Of a stretch of DNA of 64,000 bases, positions 756 to 37,668 are shown piece after piece. The DNA is taken from positions 32,001-96,000 of IMG/VR virus record IMGVR_UViG_3300025121_000014; one strand, written 5' to 3'. The translations under genes were made by a program, and so were the position numbers. The notes beneath the pieces are model-generated. The model had not been told where the DNA came from. It ran no database searches and saw only the letters and a list, made by a program, of their open reading frames with translations. Every line of letters starts with the position of its first letter. Position 1 is the first letter of the stretch. The stretch is from a virus (Duplodnaviria; Caudoviricetes).

Positions 756-805
756 ATGAACTATCCACTAAACTGAAGAATTAACTGTTTTCTTTTATAT
801 GTCAT
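756..805 (-). mobile_element. 50-bp non-autonomous IS200/IS605 mini-element (PATE/MITE-like, fused left and right ends)
   Basis: Minus strand reads TTTAT|atgacatata-AAAGAAAAC-agttaattcttcagtttagtgga-TAGTTCAT. It has the same target spacing, left-end motif, hairpin core (tcttcagttt) and right-end TAGTTCAT as the two full TnpB elements. Confidence 0.7.
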
Positions 806-881
806 ATAAAAAATTCATAATGAAGAAAACATTAAATGAATTTAAAAATTAATATATAGTTTTAAAAATAATATTAATCAA

Positions 882-1688
882 ATGATAATAAAGTTTAATG
901 AATATATATTGGAAGCAAAATTAACAGAAGGTTATGATGATTATATACGTCAATTTAATAGTATATATTCTTTAATTAAAGACATTGGTGGTACAGTTAA
1001 TCCAATTGAGTTGAAAGCTAAAAAATCTTTTTTAAAAAAAGATATAGATGCTTTTATAGAAAGAATAACAGAAGATAATATATCATCGACTGATATAGAT
1101 AAAATTCAACAATATATTAAAGATAAAAAGAAATTACTACATAAAAAATTATTTAATTTATTTGAAAATTTAGATAATATTAAAAGAGATATTAAAAGAA
1201 AAAAATTAAGAAAAACACAAGAAAGATTTGTCGAAGATAATCCAATAATTAATGGATTAAATAAAATAGATACATTAGAAAGTTTTTATAATAACATAGA
1301 GACTTTATTAAAAGATAATAGTAAAACTGATGTTCTATTTTTCTTATATGGTTTATTAGCATACTTCAATAATAATTCATTAAGTCGTGTAGATTTATTT
1401 AGTTTTATTTCTATGCATGATGATGAAATGACAGGAAATCTTATTAGAAATTTGAATTGGGAAATGGCAACATGGGATGATAAAAAATATGACCAATGGC
1501 ATTATATTGGTGGAGTTATGAATCAATTATTTAGGGGAACTGATAAATTTACAGATACAGATTTAAAAGAAGAAAATCCATATACTGATAGAGAAAATGC
1601 TATTTATGAAATATCAGATGAATTCTATTCATATATAAAATCAGTCTTAGTAAAATTTGTGGAAACTGGACAATTTGATTTAATTTAA
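882..1688 (+). CDS. Hypothetical protein with capsid-targeting-like N-terminus (MIIKFNEYILE)
   Basis: 268-aa ORF with TTAATATATA upstream at 849-858. It ends 7 bp before the CRISPR array. Confidence 0.75.
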   Translation: MIIKFNEYILEAKLTEGYDDYIRQFNSIYSLIKDIGGTVNPIELKAKKSFLKKDIDAFIERITEDNISSTDIDKIQQYIKDKKKLLHKKLFNLFENLDNIKRDIKRKKLRKTQERFVEDNPIINGLNKIDTLESFYNNIETLLKDNSKTDVLFFLYGLLAYFNNNSLSRVDLFSFISMHDDEMTGNLIRNLNWEMATWDDKKYDQWHYIGGVMNQLFRGTDKFTDTDLKEENPYTDRENAIYEISDEFYSYIKSVLVKFVETGQFDLI

Positions 1689-1695
1689 ATTATTA

Positions 1696-2325
1696 GTTGT
1701 ATCTACCTATCATTCCAAGGTTATATCCAACATTGGTAGTATAAATAGGGATGATTGTTATGTTGTATCTACCTATCATTCCAAGGTTATATCCAACGAA
1801 ACAAGTTTTTTCTGAATTACAGACACTGTTGTATCTACCTATCATTCCAAGGTTATATCCAACTAATTATAAAAATGAAAAGATAATGTAAGGGTTGTAT
1901 CTACCTATCATTCCAAGGTTATATCCAACACTGAATATTTATGGTATTCCGTCTGAAGCGTTGTATCTACCTATCATTCCAAGGTTATATCCAACTCGAT
2001 GGTAAATGCCTTAAACGGTATTAGAGTTGTATCTACCTATCATTCCAAGGTTATATCCAACCATAATCTAATAATGGAATATTACTCCCTCGTTGTATCT
2101 ACCTATCATTCCAAGGTTATATCCAACATATTGGGAAGGTGAACTATTAGCAGGTTCGTTGTATCTACCTATCATTCCAAGGTTATATCCAACGTATTAT
2201 GTGATACTTTTTGTTCTTTATCAGTTGTATCTACCTATCATTCCAAGGTTATATCCAACAAATGATATTTTTAATATACCTATGAACTTGTTGTATCTAC
2301 CTATCATTCCAAGGTTATATCCAAC
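1696..2325 (-). CRISPR. CRISPR array: 10 identical 36-bp repeats and 9 spacers of exactly 30 bp
   Basis: Repeat GTTGTATCTACCTATCATTCCAAGGTTATATCCAAC (+ strand) starts at 1696, 1762, 1828, 1894, 1960, 2026, 2092, 2158, 2224 and 2290 (66-bp period). Minus orientation is inferred from the adjacent effector and tracr-like region, not proven. Confidence 0.98.
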
Positions 2326-2476
2326 CTATGACCATTTAAATACTTAGTTTAAAGATAGTTAGTGAGTGCTTACTGAAATTAAAATATATAATAAAAATAC
2401 AAATGAAACATAAGTCTCTTTATTTTTTAATTTCTACCTCACCGTAAGGGCATACAATTGCCCCATCTAAATATTA
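2326..2476 (-). ncRNA. Candidate tracrRNA/leader between cas12f and the array
   Basis: Minus strand has the hairpin GGGCA-AUUGUA-UGCCC (2448-2463) and a 10/12 anti-repeat CTAACTATCTTT (2351-2362). Position and length are as expected for Cas12f1 tracrRNAs. Confidence 0.5.
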
Positions 2477-3739
2477 TCAAAGAACTTTTTCTTTATTTTT
2501 TAATTTATAATATTGTGTATTTTCATATTTATCAACATATAATTTTGATTTGGCAATATTATATGCTGCATTATAATCAGAATCTATATTTTCATTGTGT
2601 ATTTTACACTTATCATTTTGACATATAAATGTATCCCCATTTCTTTCCCCTATTTCCCCACATATAGAACATATTTGACTAGTATGATAAGGATCGACAA
2701 ATTTCAAGTTTATTCCATAAGAATCTACTTTATATTTTAACTTGTCTATAAAATTAGAAATTGGCCAATATCTAGAAAAAAATGAATTCTTATCAATATT
2801 TCTATTTAATAATTCCATATTAATCTGTTCTACTTTATACTTTATACAAAAATCAATAACCTGTTTACTTAATTTATGTAAAGCAGTATTAGTAAAATTA
2901 ATTTCTTTTTTTCTGATAGTGTCTAAATATTTTAATTTTCTATTTCTACCGTGTCCACCTTTTGCCATAACCATAGATTTCTGGTATTCTCTTCTTTTCT
3001 TATTAATATCCATCTTTACACGGATTAAATCATCAGAATGAATTGATTTTTGTACATGTATATTATCATTTAATCTTATTGATACAAATCGTCTAACACC
3101 TAAATCGATGCCACATACTCTACCTTTTACTTTTTCGTAATCTTCAGATTCTGTTTCATATGTAAATATTATATAATAATGTTTGTCTCTTTTATTGTAT
3201 GTTACGTTAAAAACTCTATTAATATTTAGTGATTTATCATTTTTATCCATTAATCTTTCTAATAGTTTTTTGTTACCACTTTTATCTTTACCAAATAATA
3301 GTTTAAAATCTAATCCATTTTTTATTCTTAATATGATATCATCATTTACATTATGAAAATTTGGATTAATCCCACCACTATTAAATTGGTATATAATAGG
3401 TGCTCCATATTTATATAATCTAGGTGTTCGTTTACCTTTAAATAATCCGTTTTTTATGTCATTAGAAAAATCTTTCTTAACCCTATGACATATATTAGAT
3501 AATATAGCTGTTGGGAATGTTGGATGCAAATCTCTTACAGAGTGATATACTTTTGTTGTTTTTGCAGATTTTACTGGAATAATACTTTCTGACAATTTTT
3601 GTTTTATAAATACCCATTCGTGTGAATATGCATCATTATATATTTTATTTGTTTGATACATTAAATTATTTATATAATCAAATGTATTTTTATTTAATGG
3701 CACTATTCTTATTTTTACTGCGGATATGTATTTATTCAT
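2477..3739 (-). CDS. cas12f: Miniature type V CRISPR effector, Cas12f1-like (TnpB-derived RuvC nuclease), 420 aa
   Basis: RuvC-I GIDLG, RuvC-II INMELL, Zn finger TSQICSICG...CQNDKC and RuvC-III DSDYNAA. The segment AKGGHGRNRKLKYLDTIRKKEINF resembles AsCas12f1 ARGGHGRDKRIKPIEQLRDKIANF as recalled. Directly adjacent to the array. Confidence 0.85.
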   Translation of the reverse strand: MNKYISAVKIRIVPLNKNTFDYINNLMYQTNKIYNDAYSHEWVFIKQKLSESIIPVKSAKTTKVYHSVRDLHPTFPTAILSNICHRVKKDFSNDIKNGLFKGKRTPRLYKYGAPIIYQFNSGGINPNFHNVNDDIILRIKNGLDFKLLFGKDKSGNKKLLERLMDKNDKSLNINRVFNVTYNKRDKHYYIIFTYETESEDYEKVKGRVCGIDLGVRRFVSIRLNDNIHVQKSIHSDDLIRVKMDINKKRREYQKSMVMAKGGHGRNRKLKYLDTIRKKEINFTNTALHKLSKQVIDFCIKYKVEQINMELLNRNIDKNSFFSRYWPISNFIDKLKYKVDSYGINLKFVDPYHTSQICSICGEIGERNGDTFICQNDKCKIHNENIDSDYNAAYNIAKSKLYVDKYENTQYYKLKNKEKVL

Positions 3740-3758
3740 ATTATTGTTTCTTTAATTA

Positions 3759-3790
3759 TAAAGATAAACTAAAAAATAATAAAAACCAAA
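3759..3790 (-). promoter_or_regulatory. Bacteroidota sigmaA-like promoter upstream of cas12f
   Basis: Minus strand TTTG-N20-TATCTTTA, one mismatch to the -33 TTTG / -7 TAnnTTTG consensus, about 20 nt upstream of the ATG. Confidence 0.5.
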
Positions 3791-3837
3791 TATTTTATAA
3801 AATATTTTATATATAGATGTAAAAATAAAAACATTAA

Positions 3838-6800
3838 ATGTTAGACTTTAAATTATTCGAAAATGTTGCTCAGGCTAAGTCTTTTTTAAGACAAAATAAT
3901 ATTCCTGAAACCGATTCATTATACCAATTAGTAAGAAAATCATTTAAAGGTAAAGAAGGTTATGTCGGTTGGATTACTAAATTAATATATCGTATGTTAG
4001 CTTTTGAATCTAACGGAAAATATTTGGCACTTGATAAAAATTCTTTGATTGATAGTACAGTTAATAGTAGTAATATTATTAATAATACTTTAAATCGCGC
4101 TAAAAGACAGTTTGATATATTACTTGATTATTTATCTGAAAAAGAAGTTATAGATAAATTAGAAAAACCTGTAATTGAATATGAAACATTCGAACAATTT
4201 GTTGATGCCTTTATAATTGCTGAAGATAAACTTAAAGCTAAAAGAATTTATGATGAATTTCCTGCTGAGCAAAAGAAATTAATTAATATAAACATTGATT
4301 ATAAATTATTAAAACAATTACATGATAAAAAAAATAAAAAAATATTTATTAAAAAAATATCATCGTATCATGATAGAAAAAATTTAATATCTAGAATAAC
4401 TGCATTTATTAATGAAGTAATCGATGATAATTTTAATAATAAAATAAAATATTTAAAAAATAATAAATTAGAAATTGTTCACCAGAGTGAAAAAGATAAT
4501 ATTATTATTGCTAAAATATTTAACTACCAACAATGTTCAATAGTAGGTGCTGAAACATCTTGGTGTATAGCAAGAGATTCTAATACTTATAGTAATTATA
4601 TAAAGAACGATTTAGATAGACAATATATTATTTATTTAACTGATAAACCACCAACAGATAATGAAAGTATTATTGGTGTTACTTTTAAATTAAATTCTTA
4701 TTATACTGCACATTATAAAGATGATGCATATTTAACTGAATCAAAACTTAATGAATTGTTTGAACAAAGAAAAGTTGATAAAAAAATATTTAAAATTAAA
4801 AAAAGTGAAATAAATGAACATAATATTAAAAATGTTAATCCATATGGTTTATTTAAATTAGGATTTACAAAAGATGAAATTATAAATAAAAAAGGTAAAG
4901 AATATTTAACTGGAATGCAAATTTTATTATTAAAAGAAATGGGGTTTACAAAAGATGAAATTAAAGAATATTCTCATTTTAGAGATCCATTAGAAGATAT
5001 AAAAAAAGTTGGATTTACAGAAGAAGAAATAGAAGAGTTGGTACCTAATTTAAAACAAAAAAATATTGAAGAATTTATAGAAGCTAAATTATCAAAAGAA
5101 TTTATAATGAAATATATAAATTTCGATACTTTATATGTTCATAGTTTATTACATATGTTTACAAAAGAAGAAATTTTAAATAATAAACAAGTATATGTTG
5201 AATCAGAATTAGATAGTTTTAATCAAGAACAAATAAAAAAATATGATTTAAATAATAAAGTAAGATTAGATGGTTATACAATTAGTGTAGATGAATTAAA
5301 AAAATATATTAAAACTGGTGAAATTTATAAAATTATAAATAGATTAGAACCAAAATCAATATATTTATTTAAATTAATTAATGCTGGTTTAAATTTAAAC
5401 GATTTACAACAAATAAAGAATCTTTATGAAAAATTAATTGATATTGATCGAGATTTTTATAAAAAACATTGTTATAAACCAAAAGAAGAAACGAAAACGA
5501 ACGAATATAGAATATATAGTTCGAATACATTTTATTTAGATCATACTATAAAAAAATTAAAAATATATAATATTACACCAGATGATATATCATTAGAAAA
5601 ATTAGAATATGTGTTAAATGGAATATCACATTTGGCGGTTCCAAGAGTTGTTAACTTTTTAATAGAACAAGAATATTCTTATACTGAACAAGAAATTAAA
5701 AATTTTTTACTTAAAATTATACATATTAATGTTGATAAAAAAGAACTATTTAAAAGTGGCATAGAAGCTGGTATAAATTTTTATCCAGAATTAATGATAT
5801 TTTATCTTGAAAATAACGATGTAATTGATCCACGTGAATTTGATACCGCTAAAAATCTTCTAAGCGAAAAATACCCAGATAAATGGGAAATTATTGAAGA
5901 TAAACAAAAAAAAGCTATATTTATTAAACATACATTACGTCAAGCAGGATATTTGGCTATAGGTTCACAATATGATGATTTTGGTGATTGGGATACTGAA
6001 CGCAAAGATTATGCATTAAACTTAAATTGGAAAAATGAAATGAAAGGTGAAAATGAATATTTAGCATATGTAGCAACAATAATAATTTTAGCATTAAATG
6101 ATGATTGGGAAAGTTTATATAAATTACCACAATGGGATTGGGGAGATAATACAACTAATGTTGGTGATAGTTTAGATAATTATAAAGTATATTTATCTTA
6201 TTTAGTTAGAACTATATTAGGTGCAAATGTTACAAAATCATATTCAAAATTTAGAGAAACAGACGAATTAACAAAAAATCAAATAAGTAAAATATATACT
6301 TGGATAATGAATTATGTATGGCCAACTATTGAAAATAAAGAACAACAAGAACCAGAATTACAATTAGCTTATTATCTTCTTGATAAAAAAAGATGGAATG
6401 ATTATTTACAAAGAACTAAAAAGAAAAAAATGAATTATTTTCGTAAAGATAGTTATTGGATATCATACTCTGATAAAAAAATCGGAACAAAAGAAATAAA
6501 AATGACATATAGATTTTATAACATTGCACAAGTTGTAGAATATTTATGTAATGATAGAAAATATATAAATTCACCATATTATAAAAGTATTCCTAAAACA
6601 AATATGGAATTAGATAAATTATTATTTGAATTCACAGATGGAATAACAATGGGTAAAAAAGAATTAAAAAAAACAATATCAACATTATATCGAATAAATA
6701 TTTGGAATGATAATAAAGATAGAACAAAAATAATAAATGATATATTTAATAAATATATTCCTATAATAAATGAAAGTATAATGACCAATTATGATAACTT

Positions 6801-6846: not shown

Positions 6847-6997
6847 ATTATTAGAATATTTAAATGCTTATAAAATAGATTATATTAATGATAATGATAG
6901 AAAAAGAAAACTTAAAAATATAGTTAATAATATATTCCAATTAAAAGAAAATACTATATCTAATTTTAATTTATTTAAGCATAAATTATTGATTTAA
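6833..6997 (+). CDS. 54-aa ORF starting with a copy of the preceding gene's 5' end (not in ORF track)
   Basis: Reads MLDFKLLEYLNAYKID...HKLLI*. Bases 6833-6852 are identical to 3838-3857 (atgttagactttaaattatt). Confidence 0.5.
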   Translation: MLDFKLLEYLNAYKIDYINDNDRKRKLKNIVNNIFQLKENTISNFNLFKHKLLI

Positions 6998-7324
6998 TTT
7001 TTTTCTTGGTATATAAGATGGTTCTTTTATACCATATTCTATAATTGATTTATATATCGGATTATTAAATTTATATAAAGTATTATCAGTATCAAATTTA
7101 GTTGTAATATATTTTTGTATATATACAAAATCTCTTTGAATATATGTTAATCTTTTATAATTTAAACTTATAAATATACATACAGGATAGTAAGAATTTG
7201 CTCTATTTCCGGAAAAACCAAGCCAATAAAAACCCTTATTAATAAGATATTTTTGTAGTTCATAATATTCATATTCATTAAAACACACAACTGCAATTGA
7301 TCCATATTCATATTTATATATCAT
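6986..7324 (-). CDS. Small paralogue 3 of a tandem family (C-terminal P-x-Y-x-P-R motif)
   Basis: MIYKYE...EPSYIPRKKLNQ, with ATGA overlap with the upstream paralogue. Confidence 0.75.
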   Translation of the reverse strand: MIYKYEYGSIAVVCFNEYEYYELQKYLINKGFYWLGFSGNRANSYYPVCIFISLNYKRLTYIQRDFVYIQKYITTKFDTDNTLYKFNNPIYKSIIEYGIKEPSYIPRKKLNQ

Positions 7325-7662: not shown

Positions 7663-8036
7663 TTTCTTTTACTTCTTGGTCTATAATCAGGAGTAGCAAT
7701 TTTAATACCTAAATTTATTATGTTTTTTAAAATGCTTAAATTATTTTTTTTATTAATTTTTTTATAAACAGTAGGATCTATATTATAATATATAATATTT
7801 CCATGTTCGTCATTAAATGTTGAAATTTTATTATTTCGTAAAAAATATCCATATATTGGATAATATATCGATATTTTTTTAACTATTTTAATTTGTAAAA
7901 AAATTACTAAATAATCATTATTAGATTCATAATTAGAAGTAAAACGATATCCTTTATTTATAAGATACGTTTTAATATCTTGAAAATCATCGTAATCTCT
8001 TGGTTTATAAATTACTACATTGTACTTATATTTCAT
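7659..8036 (-). CDS. Small paralogue 1 of a tandem family
   Basis: MKYKYN...ATPDYRPRSKRK. Confidence 0.75.
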   Translation of the reverse strand: MKYKYNVVIYKPRDYDDFQDIKTYLINKGYRFTSNYESNNDYLVIFLQIKIVKKISIYYPIYGYFLRNNKISTFNDEHGNIIYYNIDPTVYKKINKKNNLSILKNIINLGIKIATPDYRPRSKRK

Positions 8037-8088
8037 TCTTTCTTTTTTGACTTATGTGATGGTATCATAATATTATATTTATATATTG

Positions 8089-8119
8089 CAAAGATAGTAA
8101 AAAATAATAAGCATACAAA
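8089..8119 (-). promoter_or_regulatory. Consensus Bacteroidota sigmaA promoter
   Basis: Minus strand TTTG-N19-TATCTTTG(CA), an exact match to the -33/-7 consensus, upstream of the three-paralogue operon. Confidence 0.75.
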
Positions 8120-8137
8120 ATTGTTTATATTTAACTA

Positions 8138-9037
8138 TCATTTTAATCTATATCCTTTTTTAGTTTTTTCTAATATATTACAAATTGGTGCATTATTTTT
8201 AGCAAATTCATATCCATCTTTCCATAATTTAGTCATTTCTTTTTTATTAAAATTTAATGAATTTAAATTTGGAATATATGGAATACGATAAATATTTAAT
8301 TGTATATTTCTTTGTGTTCCTTCTAATTTACTTATTGATATATCATTGTTATTTATTTCAAAATTCATTAATGATATTGTTTTACTTGCAATATCAAATA
8401 TATTTTTAGATTTTTTGGTATCTTCTCTATATTCTGATGATAAAATAAAAATGTCGATTACATCACATTTTTCATCTATTGCTTTTTGAACTGGTATAGG
8501 TTCTAATATCCCACCATCTAAATATTCACATTCATTTTTTACAACAATATCAAAAGCAATAGGAACACTTGCTGATGCTAACATCCATTCACAAAAATCA
8601 AAATATGTTTCACGTCCTAATTTTTTATATTCTACTATCGATTTAGTCATATTAGATACCGTAATAAACACATCTTTACTATTTAAACTATAATAATCTT
8701 TTACGGTTAATATTTTTTTTATTTCTTTTAATAAATTAGATGCATCACCTAATGATGTTTTACCTAAAATTATTCTTTTTATTGCATTGAAAACTTTTAA
8801 TTTACCTTTTGAATTGTAAGGCACTACACTAAAAATATCACTATTAGTAACATTTGTATATTTATCTTTTAATTCATCTATTTTTCCAAGTGATATAAGA
8901 GGAATTAATAACGCTCCCGTACTTGTCCCAACCAATACATCCCAATCCATATTTTTTTCTTTCATAAGATATTCTACACAACCACCTGCAAATGAACCTT
9001 TTACCCCTCCCCCTGAGATTACTAATCCTCTTTTCAT
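8138..9037 (-). CDS. Patatin-like phospholipase
   Basis: Intact GGGVKG, GTSTG (GxSxG nucleophile) and DGG motifs. Confidence 0.92.
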   Translation of the reverse strand: MKRGLVISGGGVKGSFAGGCVEYLMKEKNMDWDVLVGTSTGALLIPLISLGKIDELKDKYTNVTNSDIFSVVPYNSKGKLKVFNAIKRIILGKTSLGDASNLLKEIKKILTVKDYYSLNSKDVFITVSNMTKSIVEYKKLGRETYFDFCEWMLASASVPIAFDIVVKNECEYLDGGILEPIPVQKAIDEKCDVIDIFILSSEYREDTKKSKNIFDIASKTISLMNFEINNNDISISKLEGTQRNIQLNIYRIPYIPNLNSLNFNKKEMTKLWKDGYEFAKNNAPICNILEKTKKGYRLK

Positions 9038-12885: not shown

Positions 12886-13352
12886 AAAATATAAAAGGTT
12901 TTAATCAATTTTTAAATGAAGATGGTTCCACAACTGCTGTTGTAGGATCAGGAACTGCCGTAAGTGGTCCATCTTTTTCAAGTGTATCTGTTGCAGGAGT
13001 TAGCATAGACGGTGGGCATTCAACACAAGGGAGTAGTGGTGTATCTACATTAGGCAATGTATCTGGTATGGGAGATGTTGTTTCTGCTCAACCATCTGAT
13101 ACACCAGGTGATGTTGCTGGTAGTACTAAAGGATCAGGTGATATTGGACAAACTTTAAAACCATTTACTAAATCATTTCCTAATACAAGAAAGAAGAAAA
13201 AAGAAAAAAAGAAAAAAACTAATTCTGAAAAAGGAGCACAAATAGATAAATTTTACACTTCTAAATATTCAGAAAAATATATAAAATCTGGAAATGTAAT
13301 TCAAGATTGGAAAACATTTAATAAAGAAAAAAATGGTAATAAAAAAGTTTAA
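12882..13352 (+). CDS. G/S/T-rich low-complexity protein with CTS-like N-terminus (MKNIKGFNQFLNE)
   Basis: 156 aa with a G/S-rich middle and Lys-rich tail. ATGA overlap with the upstream gene. Confidence 0.7.
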   Translation: MKNIKGFNQFLNEDGSTTAVVGSGTAVSGPSFSSVSVAGVSIDGGHSTQGSSGVSTLGNVSGMGDVVSAQPSDTPGDVAGSTKGSGDIGQTLKPFTKSFPNTRKKKKEKKKKTNSEKGAQIDKFYTSKYSEKYIKSGNVIQDWKTFNKEKNGNKKV

Positions 13353-14467
13353 TATTTTTATAAATGAAAATATAACTAGTTTACTTAAAGGAAAATCTAA
13401 TGATGAAATGATTAAAGCATTAGAAGGTTTATCAAATAATAAGAAAATAGAATATATAATTGCATATCAATTAGATTATGATTTATTACCAAGAGATAAA
13501 AATGGTAGATGTATTTATCATAATAATGAAGATGAATATGGTGCTTATAGTTGTAATCTAACTGGTTATGGGATAAAAAAATTACCTGATAATTTAACAG
13601 TTCATGGTAATCTGATTTGTAATAATAACCCAGAATTAACTGAATTGCCTAAAGGATTAATCGTTAATGGTGATATGTATTTTTTTGATTATCCTAAAGA
13701 ATTAAAATTACCACATGATATACAATTAAGTGGAAAATATTATCATAGTATTAAAGGTAAAAAATTAATAATAGAAAATATAAAAGATTTACTTAAAGGT
13801 AAATCAGATGATGAAATTGAAAAAAAATTAAAAGTAAGTTCTGACGAAAATATAGCTCGTGGTGTGTTTAGTTATAATTTACCACTTAAATATTTACCTA
13901 AAAATTATGATAAATTAGTAAAAGATATTATTAAAGAAATAAAAGAACTTGTTAAAGAATATGGTGGTAATATTACTGTATATGATTTGGGTGTAGAAAG
14001 TATTGATTATGAAGGTGAAACACATTATTATGCAATATCTGTATTAACTACTGATTATGTATGGGTAGAGGAATATCTATTAACTGATTTTACTAAAAAT
14101 AGAACATATGAAGCACCATATGAAGAATTAAATTATTATCAATTAAGTGAAATAAAAGAAACAATAGAATGGGCAATTGGATCAGGAAATTTAGAACATA
14201 AATTATATGAAAGTGTTAAAGATTTATTAAAAGCAAAATCATATGAAGATGTTGAAAAACAATTAATTGGTTTATCGGATTTAGAAAGAATTATAAAAAT
14301 AGAAGAACACGATTTACCAAAAGAATATTTACCAAATAATTATAACGATATTAAAAAAATACTTATAAATGGTATTAAAAGCAAATTAAAACAGTTTAAT
14401 AATGTTTTAAATTTTTTAAATGATTTTGATTTACAAGACGAATTATATTTATACCCATATATTTTAT
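13333..14467 (+). CDS. 5' part of a modular LRR-containing CTS-like protein, interrupted by the TnpB element
   Basis: Three xE-(N/S)(I/V)xxLLKxKS modules and LPDNLTVHGNL repeats. It rejoins 15764-16308 in frame when the IS is removed (559 aa total). The annotated ORF runs on into the IS left end to 14562. Confidence 0.7.
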
Positions 14468-15763
14468 ACATCTTGTCAAAGAAAACCACCAAATCTTCAG
14501 TTTGGTGGATGAATTTGACTTCCAAAAACGGAAAAAACAGACTTTTAACTTTTAATATATAATTTAAAGGAAAAATAAAATATCTTTAAAAATGTTAAAA
14601 TCATATAAATACAGAATATACCCAAATCAAGCCCAAAAAGAACTTCTTTCAAAGATTTTTGGTCAAGTAAGATTTGTATATAATCTTGGTTTAGAAACTA
14701 AAATAACAGCATATACAGGAAACAAAAAAAATATTGATGTGTTTGATTTAAATAAGCAAATTAAAGAATTAAAAGATAATGAATGTGAATGGTTAAAAGA
14801 AAGCCCATCACAAGCACTTCAAATGAGTATGTCTAATCTAGATAATGCTTATACAAATTTCTTTAGAGGAAAAGGTTTTCCAAAATTTAAGAATAAATAT
14901 TCAAAACAATCATTTCAACTACCACAAGGTGTTTGGTTATCAGATAATAATAAACAAATTTTTATACCGAAATTAAAATTCACCGATATAGATTTACATC
15001 GTGAATTTAAAGGCGATATTAAAACTGTAACAGTAAGTAAATCAATAACTAATAAATATTATATATCAATTTTAACAGATAATTTACAACCTAAACCAGA
15101 AAAAAAACCAATTAAGTTAAATACAACAATTGGAATTGATTTAGGGATTAAAGATTTTGCTATCACTTCAGATGGAAAGAAATTCAAGAACCACGATTTC
15201 TTTAAATCTGCTTTAAGAGAACTAAGGGTTGAACAGCGATCTCTTAGTAGGAAAAAGAAAGGATCAAACCATTACAATCAACAAAAAATGAAAGTCGCTT
15301 TAATACACGAACACATTAAAAATCAAAGAGAAGATTATTTACATAAAATCAGTAAATATTTAGTTGATAATTATGACACTATATGTATTGAAAATCTTGG
15401 TGTATCTAATATGATTAAAAATCATAAATTATCTAAAGCAATATCAGATATGGGATGGAATAAATTTAAATCTATGCTTGATTATAAATGTGAATGGTAT
15501 GGTAAAAATTTAAGTGTGATTGGTAGATTTGATCCGTCAAGTAAATCATGTAGTTCTTGTGGGACAATAAATAAAGAATTAACATTAAAAGATAGAGAAT
15601 GGGTTTGTAAAGAGTGTGGTGTTAAACACGATAGGGATATTAATGCTGCAATAAATATAAGAAATTTTGGGTTGAGGAACCAACCTAGCGTCACACAAAG
15701 TGAATGGTTGCATTGTGCTTGTGGCGTAGAAACACACAAATCTTCAGTTTGTGTGTAGTTCAT
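14468..15763 (+). mobile_element. IS200/IS605-family TnpB-only (IS1341-like) element, 1296 bp
   Basis: Preceded by TTTAT (14463-14467). Left-end hairpin gtcaaagaaaaccaccaaatcttcagtttggtggatgaatttgac; right-end hairpin gaaacacacaaatcttcagtttgtgtgtagttcat. No tnpA. Confidence 0.85.
14592..15758 (+). CDS. tnpB: TnpB RNA-guided endonuclease
   Basis: N-terminal YKYRIYP HTH, GIDLG, ICIENL, CSSCG...CKECG and HDRDINAA. The stop codon lies inside the right-end hairpin. Confidence 0.95.
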   Translation: MLKSYKYRIYPNQAQKELLSKIFGQVRFVYNLGLETKITAYTGNKKNIDVFDLNKQIKELKDNECEWLKESPSQALQMSMSNLDNAYTNFFRGKGFPKFKNKYSKQSFQLPQGVWLSDNNKQIFIPKLKFTDIDLHREFKGDIKTVTVSKSITNKYYISILTDNLQPKPEKKPIKLNTTIGIDLGIKDFAITSDGKKFKNHDFFKSALRELRVEQRSLSRKKKGSNHYNQQKMKVALIHEHIKNQREDYLHKISKYLVDNYDTICIENLGVSNMIKNHKLSKAISDMGWNKFKSMLDYKCEWYGKNLSVIGRFDPSSKSCSSCGTINKELTLKDREWVCKECGVKHDRDINAAINIRNFGLRNQPSVTQSEWLHCACGVETHKSSVCV

Positions 15764-16308
15764 CTACTATAAGTAAAATTGTTAAAATAAAACAATATGG
15801 TTTAGATAAAAAATATATGCCATCAAAAGATGAAATTAAAAAAGAATTTGATAATTGGGGTAATAGTATACATAGTACAGATTTAAAAATTTATCATATA
15901 ATTATATTAGAATTACCATTTGATTTATTACCTATAAGAAAAGAACCGAGTAAATTAAAAACAATTTATAAAGGGAATAAAAATAAAATTATTTGTAGTA
16001 CAGAGTTAGATGTAAGTTATAAAAATATAACTAAATTGCCAGATAATTTAGTTATTTATGGTGATTTGAATTGTAGTAGTAATCAATTAACTGAATTACC
16101 AAAAGGATTAGAAGTATTTGGAAATTTAAAAGCAAGTTATAATAATTTAACCGAATTTCCAGATGATACAATAGTACACGGATATTTAGATATAACTGGT
16201 ACTAAAATAACTAAAATACCTAAAACAGCAGTAATTTGGGAAGCTATATATTCTGATTATAAGTTAAATTATTTTAACCCAAAATCTGATGAAGAACATA
16301 TATTATAG
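15764..16308 (+). CDS. 3' part of the IS-interrupted LRR protein
   Basis: STISKIVKIKQYGLDKKYMPS matches the helical module of neighbouring paralogues, and ITKLPDNLVIYGDL-type repeats follow. The annotated GTG at 15751 lies inside the IS end. Confidence 0.7.
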
Positions 16309-30137: not shown

Positions 30138-30160
30138 CACCTATTTTGAAAAAATTTATA

Positions 30161-31206: not shown

Positions 31207-32880
31207 ATGCCAAAAATTCAAGGAAAACAAATAGCAGATAAAACAATAGATCAAGCAAATATATTATTGACTACACCAACGATAACTGATACGTTATCAG
31301 CAGTAACAGTAGAATATGTAACTACTGCTATATCAGCAGTTACTAGTACAAGTGGTATACTTGGTATACCTACTGACGGTTCATATTCTGATGGTATATT
31401 TACTGATTGGACTAGTGGTACAACAGTTGCTAATATGGCTGATGCTGTTAACGAAATGCTTTTATTATTGGCACCTTCACCTCCTTTAACAAGTTGGGAT
31501 AATGTTTTTAGTAATTTAAATATTGGTGGTACTTTATACGAAAGTATGAAAATAGCTGGTGGAACAACAACAACAACATCTTCTATAACAACAAATACTA
31601 CACCCGATATATCAGTTAGTGTTATTAGTTTAACAGGATCAGCAGCAAGATCAAGAGATGGTGGTATTTTTACTCTAAGTGATACTGTTCATAGTACCAT
31701 AGAAACAGTAACTTTAACAACAAGTTCTGTTACTAAATCTAGTGGATGGATTAGATATACAATAGCTGATCCATATTATGGGATAGCAGGTCAAGCTGGT
31801 TTTTGGACGGGTGTTACCGCATTCAGTTTAACTGATAGTACAAGTGCATTTACACCAAGTGCTACTTTAAGAACACTAACTTTTGCTCATCCTGGTACAG
31901 ATACACCAGAAACAAAAAGTTTTTATGTAGATGAAGTTGCAAGTACAGTAGTAGTAACAACTAATAGTGAAACTATGCCTACTATGTCATCTTATATATC
32001 AGGTATTCCAACTTTATCATATGGACAAAGTATTACAAATGTTGATTTTGATATTGCAGGAGCAGTTAAATGGTTTTATAATCCTACTATATGGAAAATA
32101 AATGGATCATATGTAGTAGATACTGGATGGTCTGTACCAACAGGTGTTCCAGCAGCAAATGTAACATATAATGAAACAGGCGCATCTGTAAATATTGCAA
32201 ATAATGTATTTAATGATAATAGTTTTTCGTATACTTTAAATGGAAGAAATATACAGGGAACATCTGATACAGATGTAGTTACAAAATCTACATATAGAAT
32301 TGATACAAAATCTGTTGAAACTAGTAGAAAATTATCTGGTACAGGTCCATTTCCTACAACTGCTTTATCTAATTATTATTATGGTACTTGGGTATCTTCA
32401 TCAGATTTAACCACAGGAGATTGGGTTAGAGAATTAATGATGAAAGAAGGAAAATATCAATGGCCAGGTAGTATTGATTATTCCGCTTATGGAGGACCTA
32501 ATTATTTATCTGTTACTGGTGGTGACACACATGTAGATTCACTTAATTATAGATGGGCTTGTTTTAGTGTTGGTTCAGTATCAAATGATACTAATTTTAC
32601 ATTTACTATAAATGGTGTAGAAAATTTTGGTTCAACAAATATAATAACTGGTATAAAATTATATGTAAGAGTAGTTGGTGCAACTGGTACAGCCTGGTTA
32701 GATGCTAATGCTGCTTGGGGTGGTGCTACTGGTGATAGTGATGGAGATGCTATGTTGGTGTTTGGTGAATCAACAGTAACAACAAGAAAAGTTACATTTG
32801 GATCAGTTAGAACAGGTACAGTATATGTTAGAATCGGTTTACAATCAGGTAGTACAAAGAAATTTACAAGTATAAGTTAA
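31207..32880 (+). CDS. S/T/G-rich putative virion structural protein
   Basis: 557 aa. MPKIQGKQI N-terminus, beta-rich composition. Confidence 0.7.
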   Translation: MPKIQGKQIADKTIDQANILLTTPTITDTLSAVTVEYVTTAISAVTSTSGILGIPTDGSYSDGIFTDWTSGTTVANMADAVNEMLLLLAPSPPLTSWDNVFSNLNIGGTLYESMKIAGGTTTTTSSITTNTTPDISVSVISLTGSAARSRDGGIFTLSDTVHSTIETVTLTTSSVTKSSGWIRYTIADPYYGIAGQAGFWTGVTAFSLTDSTSAFTPSATLRTLTFAHPGTDTPETKSFYVDEVASTVVVTTNSETMPTMSSYISGIPTLSYGQSITNVDFDIAGAVKWFYNPTIWKINGSYVVDTGWSVPTGVPAANVTYNETGASVNIANNVFNDNSFSYTLNGRNIQGTSDTDVVTKSTYRIDTKSVETSRKLSGTGPFPTTALSNYYYGTWVSSSDLTTGDWVRELMMKEGKYQWPGSIDYSAYGGPNYLSVTGGDTHVDSLNYRWACFSVGSVSNDTNFTFTINGVENFGSTNIITGIKLYVRVVGATGTAWLDANAAWGGATGDSDGDAMLVFGESTVTTRKVTFGSVRTGTVYVRIGLQSGSTKKFTSIS

Positions 32881-32906
32881 TAAAAAATAAAAAATAATAA
32901 AATAAA

Positions 32907-34946
32907 ATGGCAATATCAGAACAACAAATAGCGGAAAAATTATATAAAAAGTTAATAGGAGTAGCTGACACCGAATATCCATTAACAACTAGAAATTTTA
33001 ATGAAGAACCGTATCAAAGTTATTATAAAGTATTACCTGATCAAATATGGGCTCAGGCTGATAGTATTCCTAACACTGCACCAGTATTAGGAGATTTGGT
33101 AACATTAGGAGTAGTAAAATATTTCGATTTATTACAATTAAATGGTATTTCTGGTTCAGATGTTGGTTTCTATCATGATGATTTAAAAGATGCCATTCCA
33201 TTTAATTATGGTGATGGTACTTCATATTTTTATTCGTTATTTGCTAGTGATGGAACAACACCTATTTATTTCGGTGATGGTGATTGGATTGTTGATGTAG
33301 AATCTGGTGTCTTGACATTTTATAGTACTCCTAGTGTTACTGTTGGTTATTCTTCTCCACCTAGAATTCGATTTTATAAATATGTGGGTACAAAAGGTTT
33401 ATCAAGTGGAAGTACATCTGGAACAGGTGCAGCCATTACTGTTAAAGATCCCGTTACATTAGCATCTACAGTTAATATTACTGGTTATACGAATGGTAAT
33501 AGTGGGTTTACTTATTTACCAGAAACTATTGATGGTATAAGTACTTCTACTTTACCAGAAGCAGGTAGAATATTATTAAAAAATCAATCAAATTTACAAC
33601 AAAATGGTATTTTTCAAATATCAGGTACAACTTTAATAAGAGCAACTGATTCTGATGCAACTAGTGGAGAAACATCTATAAACGATTATGTTTTTGTTTT
33701 GTCTGGTGATACTCTTACAGCATCATCTTGGATATTGGCAACAACAACAGCAGTTGATATAACTGACATTAATCCATATGTAGATGAACAAACTTGGAAA
33801 TTATTTTCTAGTGGTGTTCAATATACAGCAGATGGAAATGCATTAAAATTATTAGGTAATCAATTTTATGTTGAATTGGATGAAGTAACATTAGGAGATT
33901 CTGGTTTACAACAAGGTGTGGATGGATTAAAAATTGAAACATCTATATTATCTGACATAAATACCATACCAGATTTAACAAGTGATATATTAGTGGTAAG
34001 TGGTTATACAACAGCTTTAAGTGGTTGGACTGGAAACTTATCAGCCGATATTGTTACATTAAGTGGTTGGTCAGGTAATTTAGCATCAAGTATATCAACT
34101 AATATTACTAACATATCTAATTTAAGTGGATGGACAGGTTCTATAGAAAGTAGAGTTACTATTAATGAAAATGATATTACAAGTAATGATTCTGATATTG
34201 CAGAATTAAGTGGATGGACAGGAAATTTAGCATCTAATATCGTTTCTTTAAGTGGATGGACAGGTTCTATTAATACACAAGTAGAAACTAATGTTATAGA
34301 TATTGCTGCTTTAAGTGGATGGACAGGAAATTTAGCATCTAATATTATTTCTTTAAGTGGATGGTCTAGTGTTTTAGCGGCAGATATTATTATTAATGCA
34401 AATAATATTTCATCTAATACTGGTTCTATTAATACAAATATTACAAACATATCTAATTTAAGTGGATGGACAGGTTCTATAGAAAGTAGAGTTACTATTA
34501 ATGAAAGTGATATTCTAGAATTAAGTGGTGCAACAGTAGATTTAAGTGGTGTAGCAGGTTCTGGTTTAACATATACATCAGGTGATGCAAAATTAAATGT
34601 AAAAGTAGACGATTGGACAATTAAAATAACAACTAATTCAGGACTAACAACACCTATTATATGGATGCAAGTAACTAGTAGTGCTACTATATCGGGTGTA
34701 GCAGGTTCAACAGGTATAGCATTAAATTATGATCCAGTTGGTTTTGTATCAGCTTATATAAATGGTATAGAATATAGAGTGAATCCTACAACAGCATCTA
34801 GTACTACTAATATACCATTTTATTTCGATACTGGTATTCCAGCACAAGGAAGCATATTATGGTTTAATCCAGTCGAAGCAGGATTTGATGTAGTAGCAGG
34901 AACAGATTATATTGTAATAAAATATAGTTATTTAATGGATTTATAA
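32907..34946 (+). CDS. Tail-fibre-like protein with an LSGW(T/S)G repeat shaft
   Basis: VKDPVTLASTVNI...GRILLKNQ...NGIF fibre motif. About 10 LSGWxG repeats, with an exact 61-bp repeat at 34110-34170 and 34446-34506. Confidence 0.75.
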   Translation: MAISEQQIAEKLYKKLIGVADTEYPLTTRNFNEEPYQSYYKVLPDQIWAQADSIPNTAPVLGDLVTLGVVKYFDLLQLNGISGSDVGFYHDDLKDAIPFNYGDGTSYFYSLFASDGTTPIYFGDGDWIVDVESGVLTFYSTPSVTVGYSSPPRIRFYKYVGTKGLSSGSTSGTGAAITVKDPVTLASTVNITGYTNGNSGFTYLPETIDGISTSTLPEAGRILLKNQSNLQQNGIFQISGTTLIRATDSDATSGETSINDYVFVLSGDTLTASSWILATTTAVDITDINPYVDEQTWKLFSSGVQYTADGNALKLLGNQFYVELDEVTLGDSGLQQGVDGLKIETSILSDINTIPDLTSDILVVSGYTTALSGWTGNLSADIVTLSGWSGNLASSISTNITNISNLSGWTGSIESRVTINENDITSNDSDIAELSGWTGNLASNIVSLSGWTGSINTQVETNVIDIAALSGWTGNLASNIISLSGWSSVLAADIIINANNISSNTGSINTNITNISNLSGWTGSIESRVTINESDILELSGATVDLSGVAGSGLTYTSGDAKLNVKVDDWTIKITTNSGLTTPIIWMQVTSSATISGVAGSTGIALNYDPVGFVSAYINGIEYRVNPTTASSTTNIPFYFDTGIPAQGSILWFNPVEAGFDVVAGTDYIVIKYSYLMDL

Positions 34947-34964
34947 TTAAATATTAACATTTTT

Positions 34965-34997
34965 AAAAAAGGGAAGATTAATCTTCCCTTTTTTTTT
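34965..34997. terminator. Intrinsic terminator (perfect palindrome)
   Basis: aaaaaagggaagatt|aatcttccctttttt followed by T. Confidence 0.8.
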
Positions 34998-35046
34998 AAA
35001 TAAAACCCTACTTAAATAATATATAAATTAAAATTTAAAACTAATT

Positions 35047-36144
35047 ATGAATGTTGCGATAACTTTTGGTGTAACAAACCCTAATTTTAGTGTTTGGAGT
35101 AGTGGTGCATTACAAAATGTATTTTTCTTATACATGATATTAAAAAATATTAAAGATATTAATGTTTATCTTGTTAATTTTGGTATTCCAATTGATGAAC
35201 TTAATGGAGATGAAATATTTAATATAAATGAATTCGAATTCACAAAATGGGATGATATTAAAAATAAAGTAGATTTATTTATAGAAGCAGGAATAAAAAT
35301 TAATGTAGAAATAACTAAAGAATTAAGGTTACGTGGAACTAAAATTGTTATGTATCGTATAGGAAATGCTTATATTTTAGATAATGAAGATATTCTTTTT
35401 AATCCATCTAATAACGAAATTTATAGTGATATTTATGATGAAATCTGGACATTACCACATCACGAAAAAACAAGTAAATTTTATTTAGAAGAAATTTATA
35501 AATGTCCTGTTAAAATATTACCTATGATATGGGATACATATTTCATCGATAAATATAATTTAAGTTTAAAAGAAAATGGTATGAATCCTTTTTTCAAATT
35601 TGAAGGATGGATAAAAAATAAAAAAAATATAACTATTTTTGAACCAAATATAAATGCAATTAAAACATCTATTTATCCAATGTTAATTGTAGAAAGGGCT
35701 TATAATAAAAGACCTGAATTATTTGGAAAAGTTAGAGTATTAAACTCTATGAAATATAATCAAAATAAAAAATTTGTTTCCTTAGTAAATAAATTAAATA
35801 TTAAAAGATATGGCATAGCCACATTTGAAGATAGATTTAATACACCATATATTTTATCTAAATATACTGATATTGTAGTTTCTACACAATGGGAAAATGA
35901 ATTAAATTATTTATATTTTGATGTTCTTTATAATAAATATCCATTAATTCATAATTCACCAAGAATTAAAAAAGCAGGATATTATTATAAAGATTTTGAT
36001 ATCGAAACAGCAAGTGACCAATTAATTAAATGCATTATAAAAGATGATAGTAAATTAAACGAAAGACGAACTAATAATTTATTAGAAGAATTCTCTATTT
36101 ATAATATTGAAAATATAACTGCTTATGAACTACTACTACACTAA
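35047..36144 (+). CDS. DUF2827-like (GT-B glycosyltransferase-like) protein
   Basis: IFEPNINAIK...YP, VVSTQWENELNYLYFDVLY...PLIHNS...GYYY. The last 5 codons come from the IS right end. Confidence 0.7.
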   Translation: MNVAITFGVTNPNFSVWSSGALQNVFFLYMILKNIKDINVYLVNFGIPIDELNGDEIFNINEFEFTKWDDIKNKVDLFIEAGIKINVEITKELRLRGTKIVMYRIGNAYILDNEDILFNPSNNEIYSDIYDEIWTLPHHEKTSKFYLEEIYKCPVKILPMIWDTYFIDKYNLSLKENGMNPFFKFEGWIKNKKNITIFEPNINAIKTSIYPMLIVERAYNKRPELFGKVRVLNSMKYNQNKKFVSLVNKLNIKRYGIATFEDRFNTPYILSKYTDIVVSTQWENELNYLYFDVLYNKYPLIHNSPRIKKAGYYYKDFDIETASDQLIKCIIKDDSKLNERRTNNLLEEFSIYNIENITAYELLLH

Positions 36145-37508
36145 AGATGTAGTAGTTTCTGGAACATAATGTTCCTTCTCTTTAAGCGTTTCACAGATTA
36201 CGCCAGATTTCTCTAGTCTTATTTGGTCTCCGCGCTCGTAATCAGTCGTTCCAACTGATATATTTATTCTATATCCTTCGTTGAGAATATTAGTTGCTGC
36301 GTTAAAATCTCTATCGTGTTTTTCACCACATTTGGAACAAATCCAATATCTATCTTTGATTGTTAAATTATTGTTTATCCAACCACATTTAGAACAGGTT
36401 TTAGATGAAGGAAAGAACCTATCTATATGAACTACAGATTTATCATTCCATAATGATTTGTAATCTAAAACTTGAACGAATGTTCCCCAACTAACATCAC
36501 TAATTGCTTTTGATAGTTTATGATTTTTCATCATTCCTTTTATATTTAAGTCCTCCAAGTAAATTGTATCAAATTGTTTGATTAAATTAATGGTTGTTTT
36601 TTGTATTAAATCCATTCGTGAGTTAGTAATTTTTTCGTGTATTCTTGCTATTTTAATTCTTTGTTTTTCATAACGAACTGATTTAATGGTCTTTCGTGAT
36701 AGATATTGTTGATTTAATTTTAAAATCCTTTCGTAATGTTTTAGAAATCTATGGTTCTTGATTTTCGTTCCATTAGACAACACTAAAAAATCTTTTATTC
36801 CTAAATCTATTCCTACTGATAATCCTGTTTTATTAACTGAATTGTATTCCATTTCAGTTAAAATCGAAACAAAGTATTTTCCAGTAGGTTTTTTTAATAT
36901 AGAACAATGTTTGATTGTTCCTTTTATTTTTCTTTCCATTATCATTTCAATACCATTTCTAAACTTTGGTATGATTAGTTTATCTTTCTTTACTGAAACA
37001 AATTGGGGTATAGTAAATGAATTTTTCGATTTCCTTGATTTAAACTTTGGAAATTGTGTTCTTTTTTTAAAAAAACCATCATAAGCAGTATCTAAACAAT
37101 TTAAAGAAAATTGAAGTGTCTGTGAGTTTATTTCCTTCAACCATTTCTTATCATCGATTTTTTTTAATTGTGTTAGTTCTTTTGATTGGTCATAATAATT
37201 TAAAGTTTTCTTATTGTTTAAATATTCATCTTTTCTTTGATTTAAAAAATAATTATATACGAACCTCACTGAACCAAAGTGTTTATTCAATAACACTTGC
37301 TGTTCTTGTGTTGGTTCTAATCTAAACTTATATGTATATTTAATTGTTTTCATCTGTTTTTATGTTAAATTTTATTCTAACATAACTATATATAATTAAA
37401 AATATATTACTTTTTTCCATTTTTAAAAATGGTTTAAAATAATTAAAGAGTTAGGTGTCAAATTCATCCATTAAACTGAAGATTTAACGGTTTTCTTTGA
37501 CAGATTAA
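36125..37508 (-). mobile_element. IS200/IS605-family TnpB-only element, 1384 bp
   Basis: TTTAT target at 37509-37513 (minus strand). Left end gtcaaagaaaaccgttaaatcttcagtttaatggatgaatttgac; right end gaaactactacatctttagtgtagtagtagttcat. Confidence 0.85.
36136..37353 (-). CDS. tnpB: TnpB RNA-guided endonuclease
   Basis: YTYKFRLEP, GIDLG, IYLEDL, CSKCG...CSKCG and HDRDFNAA. Confidence 0.95.
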   Translation of the reverse strand: MKTIKYTYKFRLEPTQEQQVLLNKHFGSVRFVYNYFLNQRKDEYLNNKKTLNYYDQSKELTQLKKIDDKKWLKEINSQTLQFSLNCLDTAYDGFFKKRTQFPKFKSRKSKNSFTIPQFVSVKKDKLIIPKFRNGIEMIMERKIKGTIKHCSILKKPTGKYFVSILTEMEYNSVNKTGLSVGIDLGIKDFLVLSNGTKIKNHRFLKHYERILKLNQQYLSRKTIKSVRYEKQRIKIARIHEKITNSRMDLIQKTTINLIKQFDTIYLEDLNIKGMMKNHKLSKAISDVSWGTFVQVLDYKSLWNDKSVVHIDRFFPSSKTCSKCGWINNNLTIKDRYWICSKCGEKHDRDFNAATNILNEGYRINISVGTTDYERGDQIRLEKSGVICETLKEKEHYVPETTTSLV

Positions 37509-37668
37509 ATAAATATTTATAAAATGTTGATTGTATATTTTTTACATATAATTCATCGTATTTAATTCCCATTACAATATATTTCTCTATTAACATAATT
37601 AATTATTTTTATTTAATTATTGTATATTTTTTTCGGTTAATAATTTTTAATATATAATAAAAAAATAG

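Follow-up and report, generated by a model that had tools for sequence, protein, structure and literature searches.

Two tnpB-only IS200/IS605 elements behind TTTAT and a recurrent class of 46-50-bp one-module pieces, best read as deletion scars, in AT-rich phage DNA

A 64,000-nucleotide stretch of viral DNA (Duplodnaviria; Caudoviricetes), positions 32,001 to 96,000 of the IMG/VR record IMGVR_UViG_3300025121_000014 and hereafter called the window, carries three units that share one set of IS200/IS605 ends. Two of them are tnpB-only insertion sequences, element A (1296 bp) and element B (1384 bp), and the third is a mini of only 50 bp. The whole is best explained, and we think probably correctly, by two elements of one end-family that inserted directly behind the pentamer TTTAT, together with a 50-bp relic of deletion. 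An earlier reading of the window made from the letters alone (the sequence-only reading) had already proposed a single IS200/IS605 end-family at several sizes, and this proposal held. The target is ordinary for the family; the part for which we found no description is a recurrent class of 46-50-bp pieces with a single end module, to which the 50-bp mini belongs.

Three units with one set of ends

The units, their flanking target motifs and their parts are as follows, each with the evidence used to place it.

756..805, minus strand: the mini, a 50-bp one-module derivative, most likely a deletion relic (matches to family ends, fold, stem count)
806..810, minus strand: TTTAT flanking the mini (pattern count)
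14463..14467, plus strand: TTTAT target and predicted transposon-adjacent motif (TAM), outside element A on its left flank (pattern count, family statistic, unoccupied homologous sites)
14468..15763, plus strand: element A, tnpB-only IS200/IS605 (IS1341-type), 1296 bp (ends, TnpB profile matches, right-end hairpin plus TAGTTCAT)
14468..14519, plus strand: left end of element A, with a 7-nt variable linker, outer stem GTCAAA/TTTGAC, guide block GAAAA and inner hairpin CCACCAAA-TCTTCAG-TTTGGTGG
14592..15758, plus strand: tnpB of element A, 388 aa, with its TAG stop within TAGTTCAT (open reading frame, Pfam, NCBIfam, ISDra2 TnpB alignment)
15732..15763, plus strand: right end of element A, hairpin ACACACAAA-TCTTCAG-TTTGTGTGT followed by AGTTCAT (fold, right-end comparison)
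15759-15763, plus strand: transposon-encoded motif (TEM) TTCAT, the final bases of element A
36125..37508, minus strand: element B, tnpB-only insertion sequence of the same end-family, 1384 bp (ends, profiles, fold)
36136..37353, minus strand: tnpB of element B, 405 aa (open reading frame, Pfam, NCBIfam, alignment to A)
37509..37513, minus strand: TTTAT on the left flank of element B (pattern count)

The pattern TTTAT-N10-AAAGAAAAC occurs three times in the window, at 787-810 (minus strand), 14463-14486 (plus) and 37490-37513 (minus), where shuffled sequences led us to expect 0.01 occurrences and none of 100 shuffles reached three. All three units terminate in TAGTTCAT, at 756-763 (minus), 15756-15763 (plus) and 36125-36132 (minus). 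This 8-mer is not enriched by itself (6 observed vs 4.9 expected), so that only its position is informative. The counts confirm what had been read from the sequence, namely that TTTAT stands 10 nt ahead of AAAGAAAAC in each unit and that all three share the TAGTTCAT finish. Elements A and B have subterminal hairpins at both ends and neither terminal inverted repeats nor a target-site duplication; their TTTAT| and TTCAT| flanks are not duplicated.

The left ends of A and B are two-tiered, with the outer stem GTCAAA/TTTGAC, an internal loop containing GAAAA, and an inner hairpin of 8-9 bp closed by the loop TCTTCAG. Folded as DNA, the left end of A reaches -10.8 kcal/mol (z = -2.7 vs shuffles). 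Among 23 left ends from many contigs, both stems show covariation, with two-sided changes at seven pairs; 96% of the stem cells are paired, where shuffling gives 79% and sliding the partners no more than 56%. The right end of either element forms a hairpin of 9 bp, and the GAA directly 5' of it pairs with the TTC of the terminal TTCAT. The right ends tested (10 distinct, plus others read) close in (T/G)(A/G)GTTCA(T/C) and have flanks that are all unrelated. TTTAT on the left flank, TTCA(T/C) as the last five bases and a guide block 5' of each hairpin place the family in the ISGst2-like TAM/TEM group.

One detail of the right ends may bear on the guide block. The sole full-length element finishing in TTCAC (right ends L007 and L112) has GAAG 5' of the right-end stem, and GAAA stands at the same place in all eight distinct TTCAT right ends compared, with the other right ends read in agreement. 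This difference could be a guide-TEM covariation (A-T to G-C), but it is one event only.

Elements A and B and their TnpB proteins

The TnpB proteins of A and B are 46% identical (BLASTP) and both match the Pfam families HTH_OrfB_IS605, OrfB_IS605 and Cas12f1-like_TNB; against the NCBIfam model IS200_TnpB they score 418 bits (A) and 410 bits (B). The motifs GIDLGIKDF, (I/L)E(N/D)L and HDRD(I/F)NAA are kept in both proteins in the BLASTP alignment. TnpB of A aligns to the ISDra2 TnpB structures 8EXA/8H1J with E = 6e-75, and its motifs fall on GVDLGIK, VEDL and HDRDENAA of a chain close to ISDra2 TnpB. In ISDra2 TnpB, the aligned motifs carry the RuvC D-E-D triad. Judged by these comparisons, A and B encode intact IS200/IS605 TnpB proteins with the OrfB_IS605 RuvC fold, the zinc-ribbon TNB and an intact D-E-D triad.

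The surroundings of the two elements agree with their boundaries to a limited degree. In silico excision of A fuses the open reading frame (ORF) starting at 13333 with that starting at 15751 in frame into an open 559-aa ORF, which is a weak sign that A split one gene. This sign is weakened further by the modular nature of the joined protein, the downstream part of which could stand alone. Element B sits antisense in the last codons of a DUF2827 gene. With B removed in silico, the DUF2827 protein has 363 aa and ends in ...AYKYL, as opposed to 365 aa ending in ...AYELLLH with B in place, and the profile has 362 positions; the length after removal is weakly consistent with the boundaries of B.

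The ORFs flanking A (13333-14562 and 15751-16308) are repeats of one module that starts with K-S-D-D-E-I and continues with LPDNL leucine-rich units, and the downstream ORF opens with another copy of this module. A hybrid element was observed in the ENA contig NODE_3522 (L014:2455-3820, about window 14475-15763). On the left it is of the B type in flank (genes for ribonucleotide reductase and DnaB), linker and end hairpin; on the right, end and flank are both identical to A. Either two copies recombined or the contig is an assembly chimera across the repeat.

TTTAT as the insertion target

The sequence-only reading held that the three copies in the window fix the target as TTTAT. The target itself is supported, but three copies alone were insufficient, and some 36 copies from outside the window together with unoccupied sites were needed. 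Left ends were collected with the pattern AAAGAAAAC-N7-TCTTCAGTTT, which does not require TTTAT, from IMG/VR, 185,579 genomes (one per prokaryote species) and JGI metagenomes. TTTAT lay 9-12 nt upstream in 35 of 36 distinct true left ends (at 10 nt in 24 of them), and the remaining one had ATTAT. At a background rate of 0.0076 per position, the probability of 35 out of 36 is about 4e-51. The columns 5' of TTTAT reflect base composition only, and the element itself opens with A (91%) and T (83%). Where one species is present at different sites, its copies have the linker after TTTAT in common and diverge 5' of TTTAT. For example, six full-length copies in a 421-kb phage record (G002) share the identical left-end start TTTAT + ATTTTTGTG + AAAGAAAAC and diverge before TTTAT.

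Homologous unoccupied sites place the boundaries to the base. Seven comparisons break exactly at TTTAT| or ...TTCAT|. The unoccupied locus L053 retains TTTAT, and its similarity to the occupied locus L066 (94%) ends right after it. TTTAT is likewise kept, with divergence directly after it, in the unoccupied sites of the comparisons L155 vs L197, L243 vs L102, and L244 vs both L210 and L232, as well as in L038 vs L216 (99%). On the right side, the flank of the palindrome-associated transposable element (PATE) in L038 is identical over 116/116 positions to L216, where it directly follows TTTAT. The right flank of a G002 mini (L176) resumes exactly after GGTTCAT and aligns to an uninterrupted 86-aa ORF of a complete phage genome (G001), with TTTAT at the junction. 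The right flank of L249 does not bear on the junction, as homology there simply stops at a gene boundary of a repeated family.

Could the true left boundary lie further in, for instance after TGTCA, with TTTAT as a conserved internal or spaced motif rather than an abutting target? The seven nucleotides after TTTAT do vary between A, B and the hybrid L014, and strong conservation begins only at GTCAAAG. Against this stand the sharing of those 7-9 nt among copies of one species, the unoccupied sites described above, and the covariation of the GTC bases with GAC in the left-end outer stem, so that we regard an inner boundary as very improbable. The sequence-only reading had proposed empty sites in relatives as a check, with another junction such as TGTCA| as the refuting outcome; the unoccupied sites and right flanks break at TTTAT| and TTCAT|, and the TGTCA| junction is thereby rejected.

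Weighing against these boundaries, no empty-site allele of A, B or the window mini was found, and for these three units the boundaries therefore rest on family-wide evidence. Homologues of the upstream ORF were recovered only in the identical, occupied form. Exact look-up of six flanking proteins returned about 25 contigs (ENA, JGI, Logan, NCBI), all occupied and many breaking inside the elements. The flanks matched only distant paralogues in five related viral records, close relatives of the flanking genes were absent from IMG/VR, and the right junction predicted for the L066 element had no match when scanned for. The predicted vacated junctions are ...TTTAT joined to CTACTATAAG... for element A and, on the minus strand, ...TTTAT joined to AAGCAGTTAT... 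for element B.

Taken as a statement about the boundary, TTTAT as the insertion target is strongly supported. From the known identity of TnpA target and TnpB TAM in ISDra2 and ISGst2, the TAM of both TnpB proteins would be TTTAT as well. ISGst2 shows the same logic with the same TAM, which makes this prediction sound but not new.

An additional feature was noticed at the L038/L216 locus (L038:5327-5690 vs L216:12274-12340). A coding stretch of 66 nt, which in the PATE-free L216 lies between two TTTATs, is missing from the allele with the 356-bp PATE; the left flank of the PATE ends at the first TTTAT and its right flank follows the second. The loss may have come about because a TAM further upstream was used, or by slippage from one TTTAT to the other.

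The 50-bp mini, a probable relic at one fixed locus

The mini opens with a left-end linker and AAAGAAAAC; a degenerate stem follows (CAGTTAAT / TTTAGTGGA, closed by the loop TCTTCAG), and TAGTTCAT forms the right-end tip. Its similarity to left ends covers AAAGAAAAC, TCTTCAGTTTAGTGGAT, the loop and the 3' arm as far as GGAT, after which it switches to the right-end tip, with TAGTTCAT at right-end distance after the 3' arm. These matches to both ends bear out the earlier proposal that a left-end start was fused to a right-end finish, and judged by them the mini is a genuine derivative of the family. A chance look-alike in AT-rich DNA, or a truncated left end with a coincidental TAGTTCAT, might be suspected in a window of 25% G+C where TAGTTCAT by itself is no more frequent than expected. 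However, the 14-base TTTAT-N10-AAAGAAAAC pattern is far too rare for this, TCTTCAGTTTNGTGGAT matches only the three family sites in the window even at 3 mismatches, TAGTTCAT stands at the family's fixed distance after the 3' arm, and the same build recurs at 13 other loci. A chance match is thus hardly credible and was rejected on the rarity of the pattern, the fixed TAGTTCAT spacing and the 13 further loci.

Two other claims about the mini did not survive. It had been described as built around one hairpin, which does not apply in a working sense: the stem has 4 Watson-Crick and 2 G-T pairs out of 9, the poorest among 14 minis, and its DNA fold is no better than that of shuffles (z = -0.04). 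It had also been taken to show non-autonomous spread. The mini sequence is identical in all six other contigs covering the site and thus marks one fixed locus, its stem is broken, and no mini recurs at a second site. Compared with PATEs, it has a single module, lacks the left-end outer stem partner and the right-end guide block, and is confined to one locus where PATEs are multi-copy. Most likely, the mini is the leftover scar of a lost copy rather than a spreading mini-transposon.

A recurrent class of 46-50-bp pieces

We scanned IMG/VR with the pattern TTTAT-N9-11-AAAGAAAAC-N15-45-TAGTTCAY, searched five viral records with patterns and scanned the fetched loci once more. Thirteen further one-hairpin pieces of 46-50 bp with the family loop were found in viral contigs, one of them (L074:11550) in a JGI metagenome contig. 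An equally strict 5' pattern gave at least 106 full left ends in IMG/VR, so that roughly one in ten left-end starts there (~13 vs at least 106) is such a piece. In several of these minis the stem is chimeric, one half matching the left arm and the other the right arm of elements from the same genome or a sister genome. The mini in L010 combines the left arm CCGTTAAA (B/L014 type) with the right arm TTTGTGTGT of the right end of A, that in L166 joins a G002 left arm to a G002 right arm, and that in L176 has the G002 right-end hairpin behind a left-end linker. The best reading of the class is that of deletion scars, produced by recombination of a left end with a right end and akin to solo long terminal repeats (LTRs).

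The alternative that the 14 minis are working one-hairpin non-autonomous mini-transposons, comparable to repetitive extragenic palindromic (REP) sequences served by a Y1 enzyme, has several points in its favor. The class is recurrent and very uniform in build (46-50 bp). A single hairpin with a 5' guide block would present TTTAT| and TTCAT| on either side, and the left-end guide GAAAA could in principle pair with both. Every mini has TTTAT and TTCAY intact, although the search pattern demanded this. REP elements indicate that Y1 enzymes can act on single hairpins (PMC8266576, PMC3479197). On the other side, no sequence among the 14 minis was found at two sites, even in G002, where the full-length element has six copies with an identical left-end start and the three minis all differ. 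The left-arm/right-arm chimeric stems are mismatched in L010, L158, L179, L166 and the window copy, and the window copy does not fold. The mini in L146 pairs a TTCAC tip with GAAAA, whereas the sole full-length TTCAC element has GAAG. L176 and L166, the two minis comparable with G001, have homology on one flank only, which shows that they mark breakpoints and not simple insertions; in two giant phages the pieces coincide with synteny breaks. In IS608, moreover, the dimeric TnpA requires both the left-end and the right-end hairpin. We therefore consider working mini-transposons unlikely.

Some observations weigh against deletion scars all the same. The stem keeps 8-9 of 9 Watson-Crick pairs in 9 of the 14 minis, as that of a mobile element would. 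The sister minis L143/L074 and L147/L153 are 92-93% identical over ~50-60 nt within unrelated flanks, which would be expected from transposition and equally from separate deletions in related parents. A full-length copy in one genome was nowhere found opposite a mini at the same site in another, which would prove a scar origin. The census is also incomplete and biased, as the pattern required exact TTTAT, AAAGAAAAC and TAGTTCAY and excluded the 3-A right-end type block GAAAC. It is conceivable, though rather doubtful, that the pieces represent an undescribed minimal mobile form of IS200/IS605 in which one hairpin and one guide block serve both cleavage sites; if so, they would be a phage-borne bridge between insertion-sequence ends and REP-like elements. 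The literature on PATEs and on REPs with their associated tyrosine transposases (RAYTs) gave no description of a 46-50-bp one-module form, although no search was aimed at that smaller form.

Deletion scars would most likely arise when a left-end module and a homologous right-end module, of the same copy or of two copies, recombine or undergo replication slippage. The shared modules would comprise GAAA(A)C, a stem, the TCTT(C/T)AG loop and the other arm of the stem, and everything between them would be deleted. Replication slippage at stalled hairpins is as likely an origin of the scars as homologous recombination. If the TnpB guide corresponds to what follows the right end, TnpB would no longer target a scar, because the linker instead of the guide-matching flank then stands behind TTTAT. 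TnpA should not accept a scar as substrate either, since a second hairpin is missing, and the scar could therefore persist.

Further arrangements were seen around such pieces. In L151 (130-352), a 49-bp mini stands beside an inverted degenerate copy of its own hairpin module ~40 nt upstream, and a further hairpin of right-end type, with CTTCAT as its end, is found ~100 nt downstream beside sequences that by eye resemble tRNA genes. At L184:1442-1553 (G002:340413-340524), a mini ending in TAGTTCAA, a mutated TEM, is arranged head to head with an inverted shortened left end, with two TTTAT motifs ~12 nt apart. A 365-bp PATE and the 50-bp chimeric mini are ~470 nt apart in L010:6062-6951 (G003:60255-61144), a contig from a sister sample of the window's source. 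Four loci in G002 and G003 (L170, L174, L162 and L185) have TTTAT, linker and AAAGAAAAC cut at or inside the hairpin and followed by unrelated sequence; these truncated left-end starts are a second kind of relic.

Transposase source and proposed mobility

The window was said to lack tnpA, and indeed no Y1_Tnp match was found among its scanned ORFs of at least 100 aa (all but the overlapping ORFs 7980-8291 and 36758-37084). A source exists in related phages. In G001, a complete 640-kb viral record, an intact Y1_Tnp gene (119 bits) lies between a matching left end and a 405-aa tnpB. The left end of this element reads TTTAT + 9 nt + AAAGAAAAC... and its right end ...GGTTCAT, and G002 has a broken copy. 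The intact tnpA and tnpB in G001 reveal that autonomous members of the end-family exist in related phages.

Each of the two elements sits immediately 3' of TTTAT, with the target pentamer remaining outside, and comprises in order a short variable linker, the two-tier left-end stem-loop, tnpB, the right-end hairpin and AG-TTCAT. The unpaired GAAAA block of the left end is placed as the IS608/ISGst DNA guide. For the mobility of A and B we infer the following course of events. A Y1 TnpA supplied in trans would move A and B as single strands, with cuts behind TTTAT at the left end and behind TTCAT at the right end. The omega-RNA carried by TnpB would derive from the right end together with the 3' end of tnpB, and the 16-20 nt beyond TTCAT would be its guide. 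After the examples of ISDra2 and ISGst2, TnpB would then cleave next to TTTAT at the vacated site, leading to restoration of the copy.

Genomic context

The window has a G+C content of 25.4%, and most of its ORFs matched no Pfam family in the profile scan; an Rfam search gave zero matches. Stretches identical to the window are present in several groundwater metagenome assemblies. The window encodes an amidase and very large lectin and leucine-rich repeat proteins, and a portal gene is present in a related contig. This gene content is in keeping with a phage, and we take the window as a piece of an AT-rich giant groundwater phage genome. Many metagenome contigs of this phage stop inside element A or B (window 14900-15260 and 37180-37490), as would be consistent with further copies of A and B elsewhere in the genome.

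A CRISPR locus lies next to the mini.

1696..2325, minus strand: CRISPR array with ten 36-nt repeats and 30-nt spacers
2477..3739, minus strand: Cas12f-like CRISPR effector, 420 aa (NCBIfam, structure-chain matches, adjacent array)

The effector scores 145 bits against guided_TnpB and 87 bits against the Cas12f2 model, below its curated cut-off of 450, and is thus called Cas12f-like rather than an equivalog. Among its best matches to solved chains are the Cas12f effectors 9NZO/9NZR (E = 6e-44); the top two chains, 8HR5 ('Transposase') and 9NZP (TnpB), score slightly above Cas12f. With a small RuvC/TNB effector adjoining a CRISPR array, the locus agrees with type V-F, and the earlier statement that such an effector lies side by side with the mini and the TnpB elements proved right. 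No cas1, cas2 or cas4 turned up among the scanned window ORFs. The array region differs by sample: over window 650-1995, the identity of L018 is only 94.7% and its alignment has 19 gaps, and the repeats in L020 seem to be fewer than in the window. The array may gain or lose spacers in the population.

Comparison with known systems

The closest known system is ISGst2 from Geobacillus stearothermophilus, which has the TAM TTTAT and the TEM TTCAC with sequenced donor joints, whose TnpB2 requires TTTAT for binding and cleavage, and whose host genome contains ~50 tnpA-less copies and some PATEs (Meers 2023, bioRxiv 10.1101/2023.03.14.532601). Solo-tnpB elements of Sulfolobus islandicus are likewise flanked by TTTAT. 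The phage family shares with ISGst2 and its relatives the TAM TTTAT and a TEM of TTCAC or TTCAT, TAM and TEM differing at positions 3 and 5, and 5' of each hairpin it has a block in the position of the ISGst2 DNA guide. In the ISGst2 system, many tnpB-only copies are served in trans by one TnpA, and the tnpB-only copies of the phage family may be served in the same way; ORF-less PATE derivatives exist in both, and by analogy the TnpB TAM would equal the TnpA target. In this respect the target claim is ordinary and repeats what ISGst2 already shows. The phage family differs in its end sequences, and its left-end pattern matched no Geobacillus genome. Its host is a giant AT-rich phage lineage, and its left end has an extra covarying outer stem. 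The definition of TAM and ends makes two compact phage TnpB nucleases (388 and 405 aa) testable, with TTTAT as predicted TAM and a guide predicted to start after ...TTCAT. Giant-phage and other viral contigs commonly carry this end-family, of which IMG/VR has more than 100 left ends.

As in ISDra2 and IS608, there are no inverted repeats and no target duplication, the hairpins are subterminal, and insertion occurs 3' of a short motif, which is TTGAT for ISDra2 and TTAC for IS608 as opposed to TTTAT here. Unlike ISDra2 and IS608, the copies in the window are without tnpA. Typical PATEs of this end-family, of 323-437 bp, were found in related contigs and, like the PATEs of Haloquadratum (PMC3119063), Halanaerobium (PMC7290912; one example has 271 nt) and ISGst, are ORF-less derivatives that keep the element ends. 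The 46-50-bp pieces differ from these in holding a single module and no cargo, and the PATE descriptions consulted name larger ones only.

REPs and REPINs (REP doublets) with their TnpA-REP/RAYT enzymes (PMC8266576, PMC3479197 and PMC3337134) are a parallel in form, as they too have short single-hairpin units with a conserved 5' block. REP singlets are regarded as remnants of REPIN doublets, and REPs are related to IS200/IS605 ends. In contrast to REPs, the minis do not have a high copy number, carry a full pair of TAM and TEM, and occurred with no dedicated RAYT seen. With respect to mechanism only, solo LTRs offer an analogy, in which direct-repeat ends recombine, the interior is deleted and one hybrid end remains at the original site. 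The difference is that the repeats here are hairpin modules of ~35 nt with only 13-17 nt of identity. Target motif and element tip are both preserved in a 50-bp scar, which, if our assumptions on guide and hairpins hold, would escape both TnpB homing and TnpA. Even as scars, the pieces would be a new and easily searchable marker of past TnpB-transposon loss and of the recombination between copies that reshuffles giant-phage genomes, and they offer a simple way to follow the loss of these selfish elements and the rearrangements that the elements cause in phage genomes.

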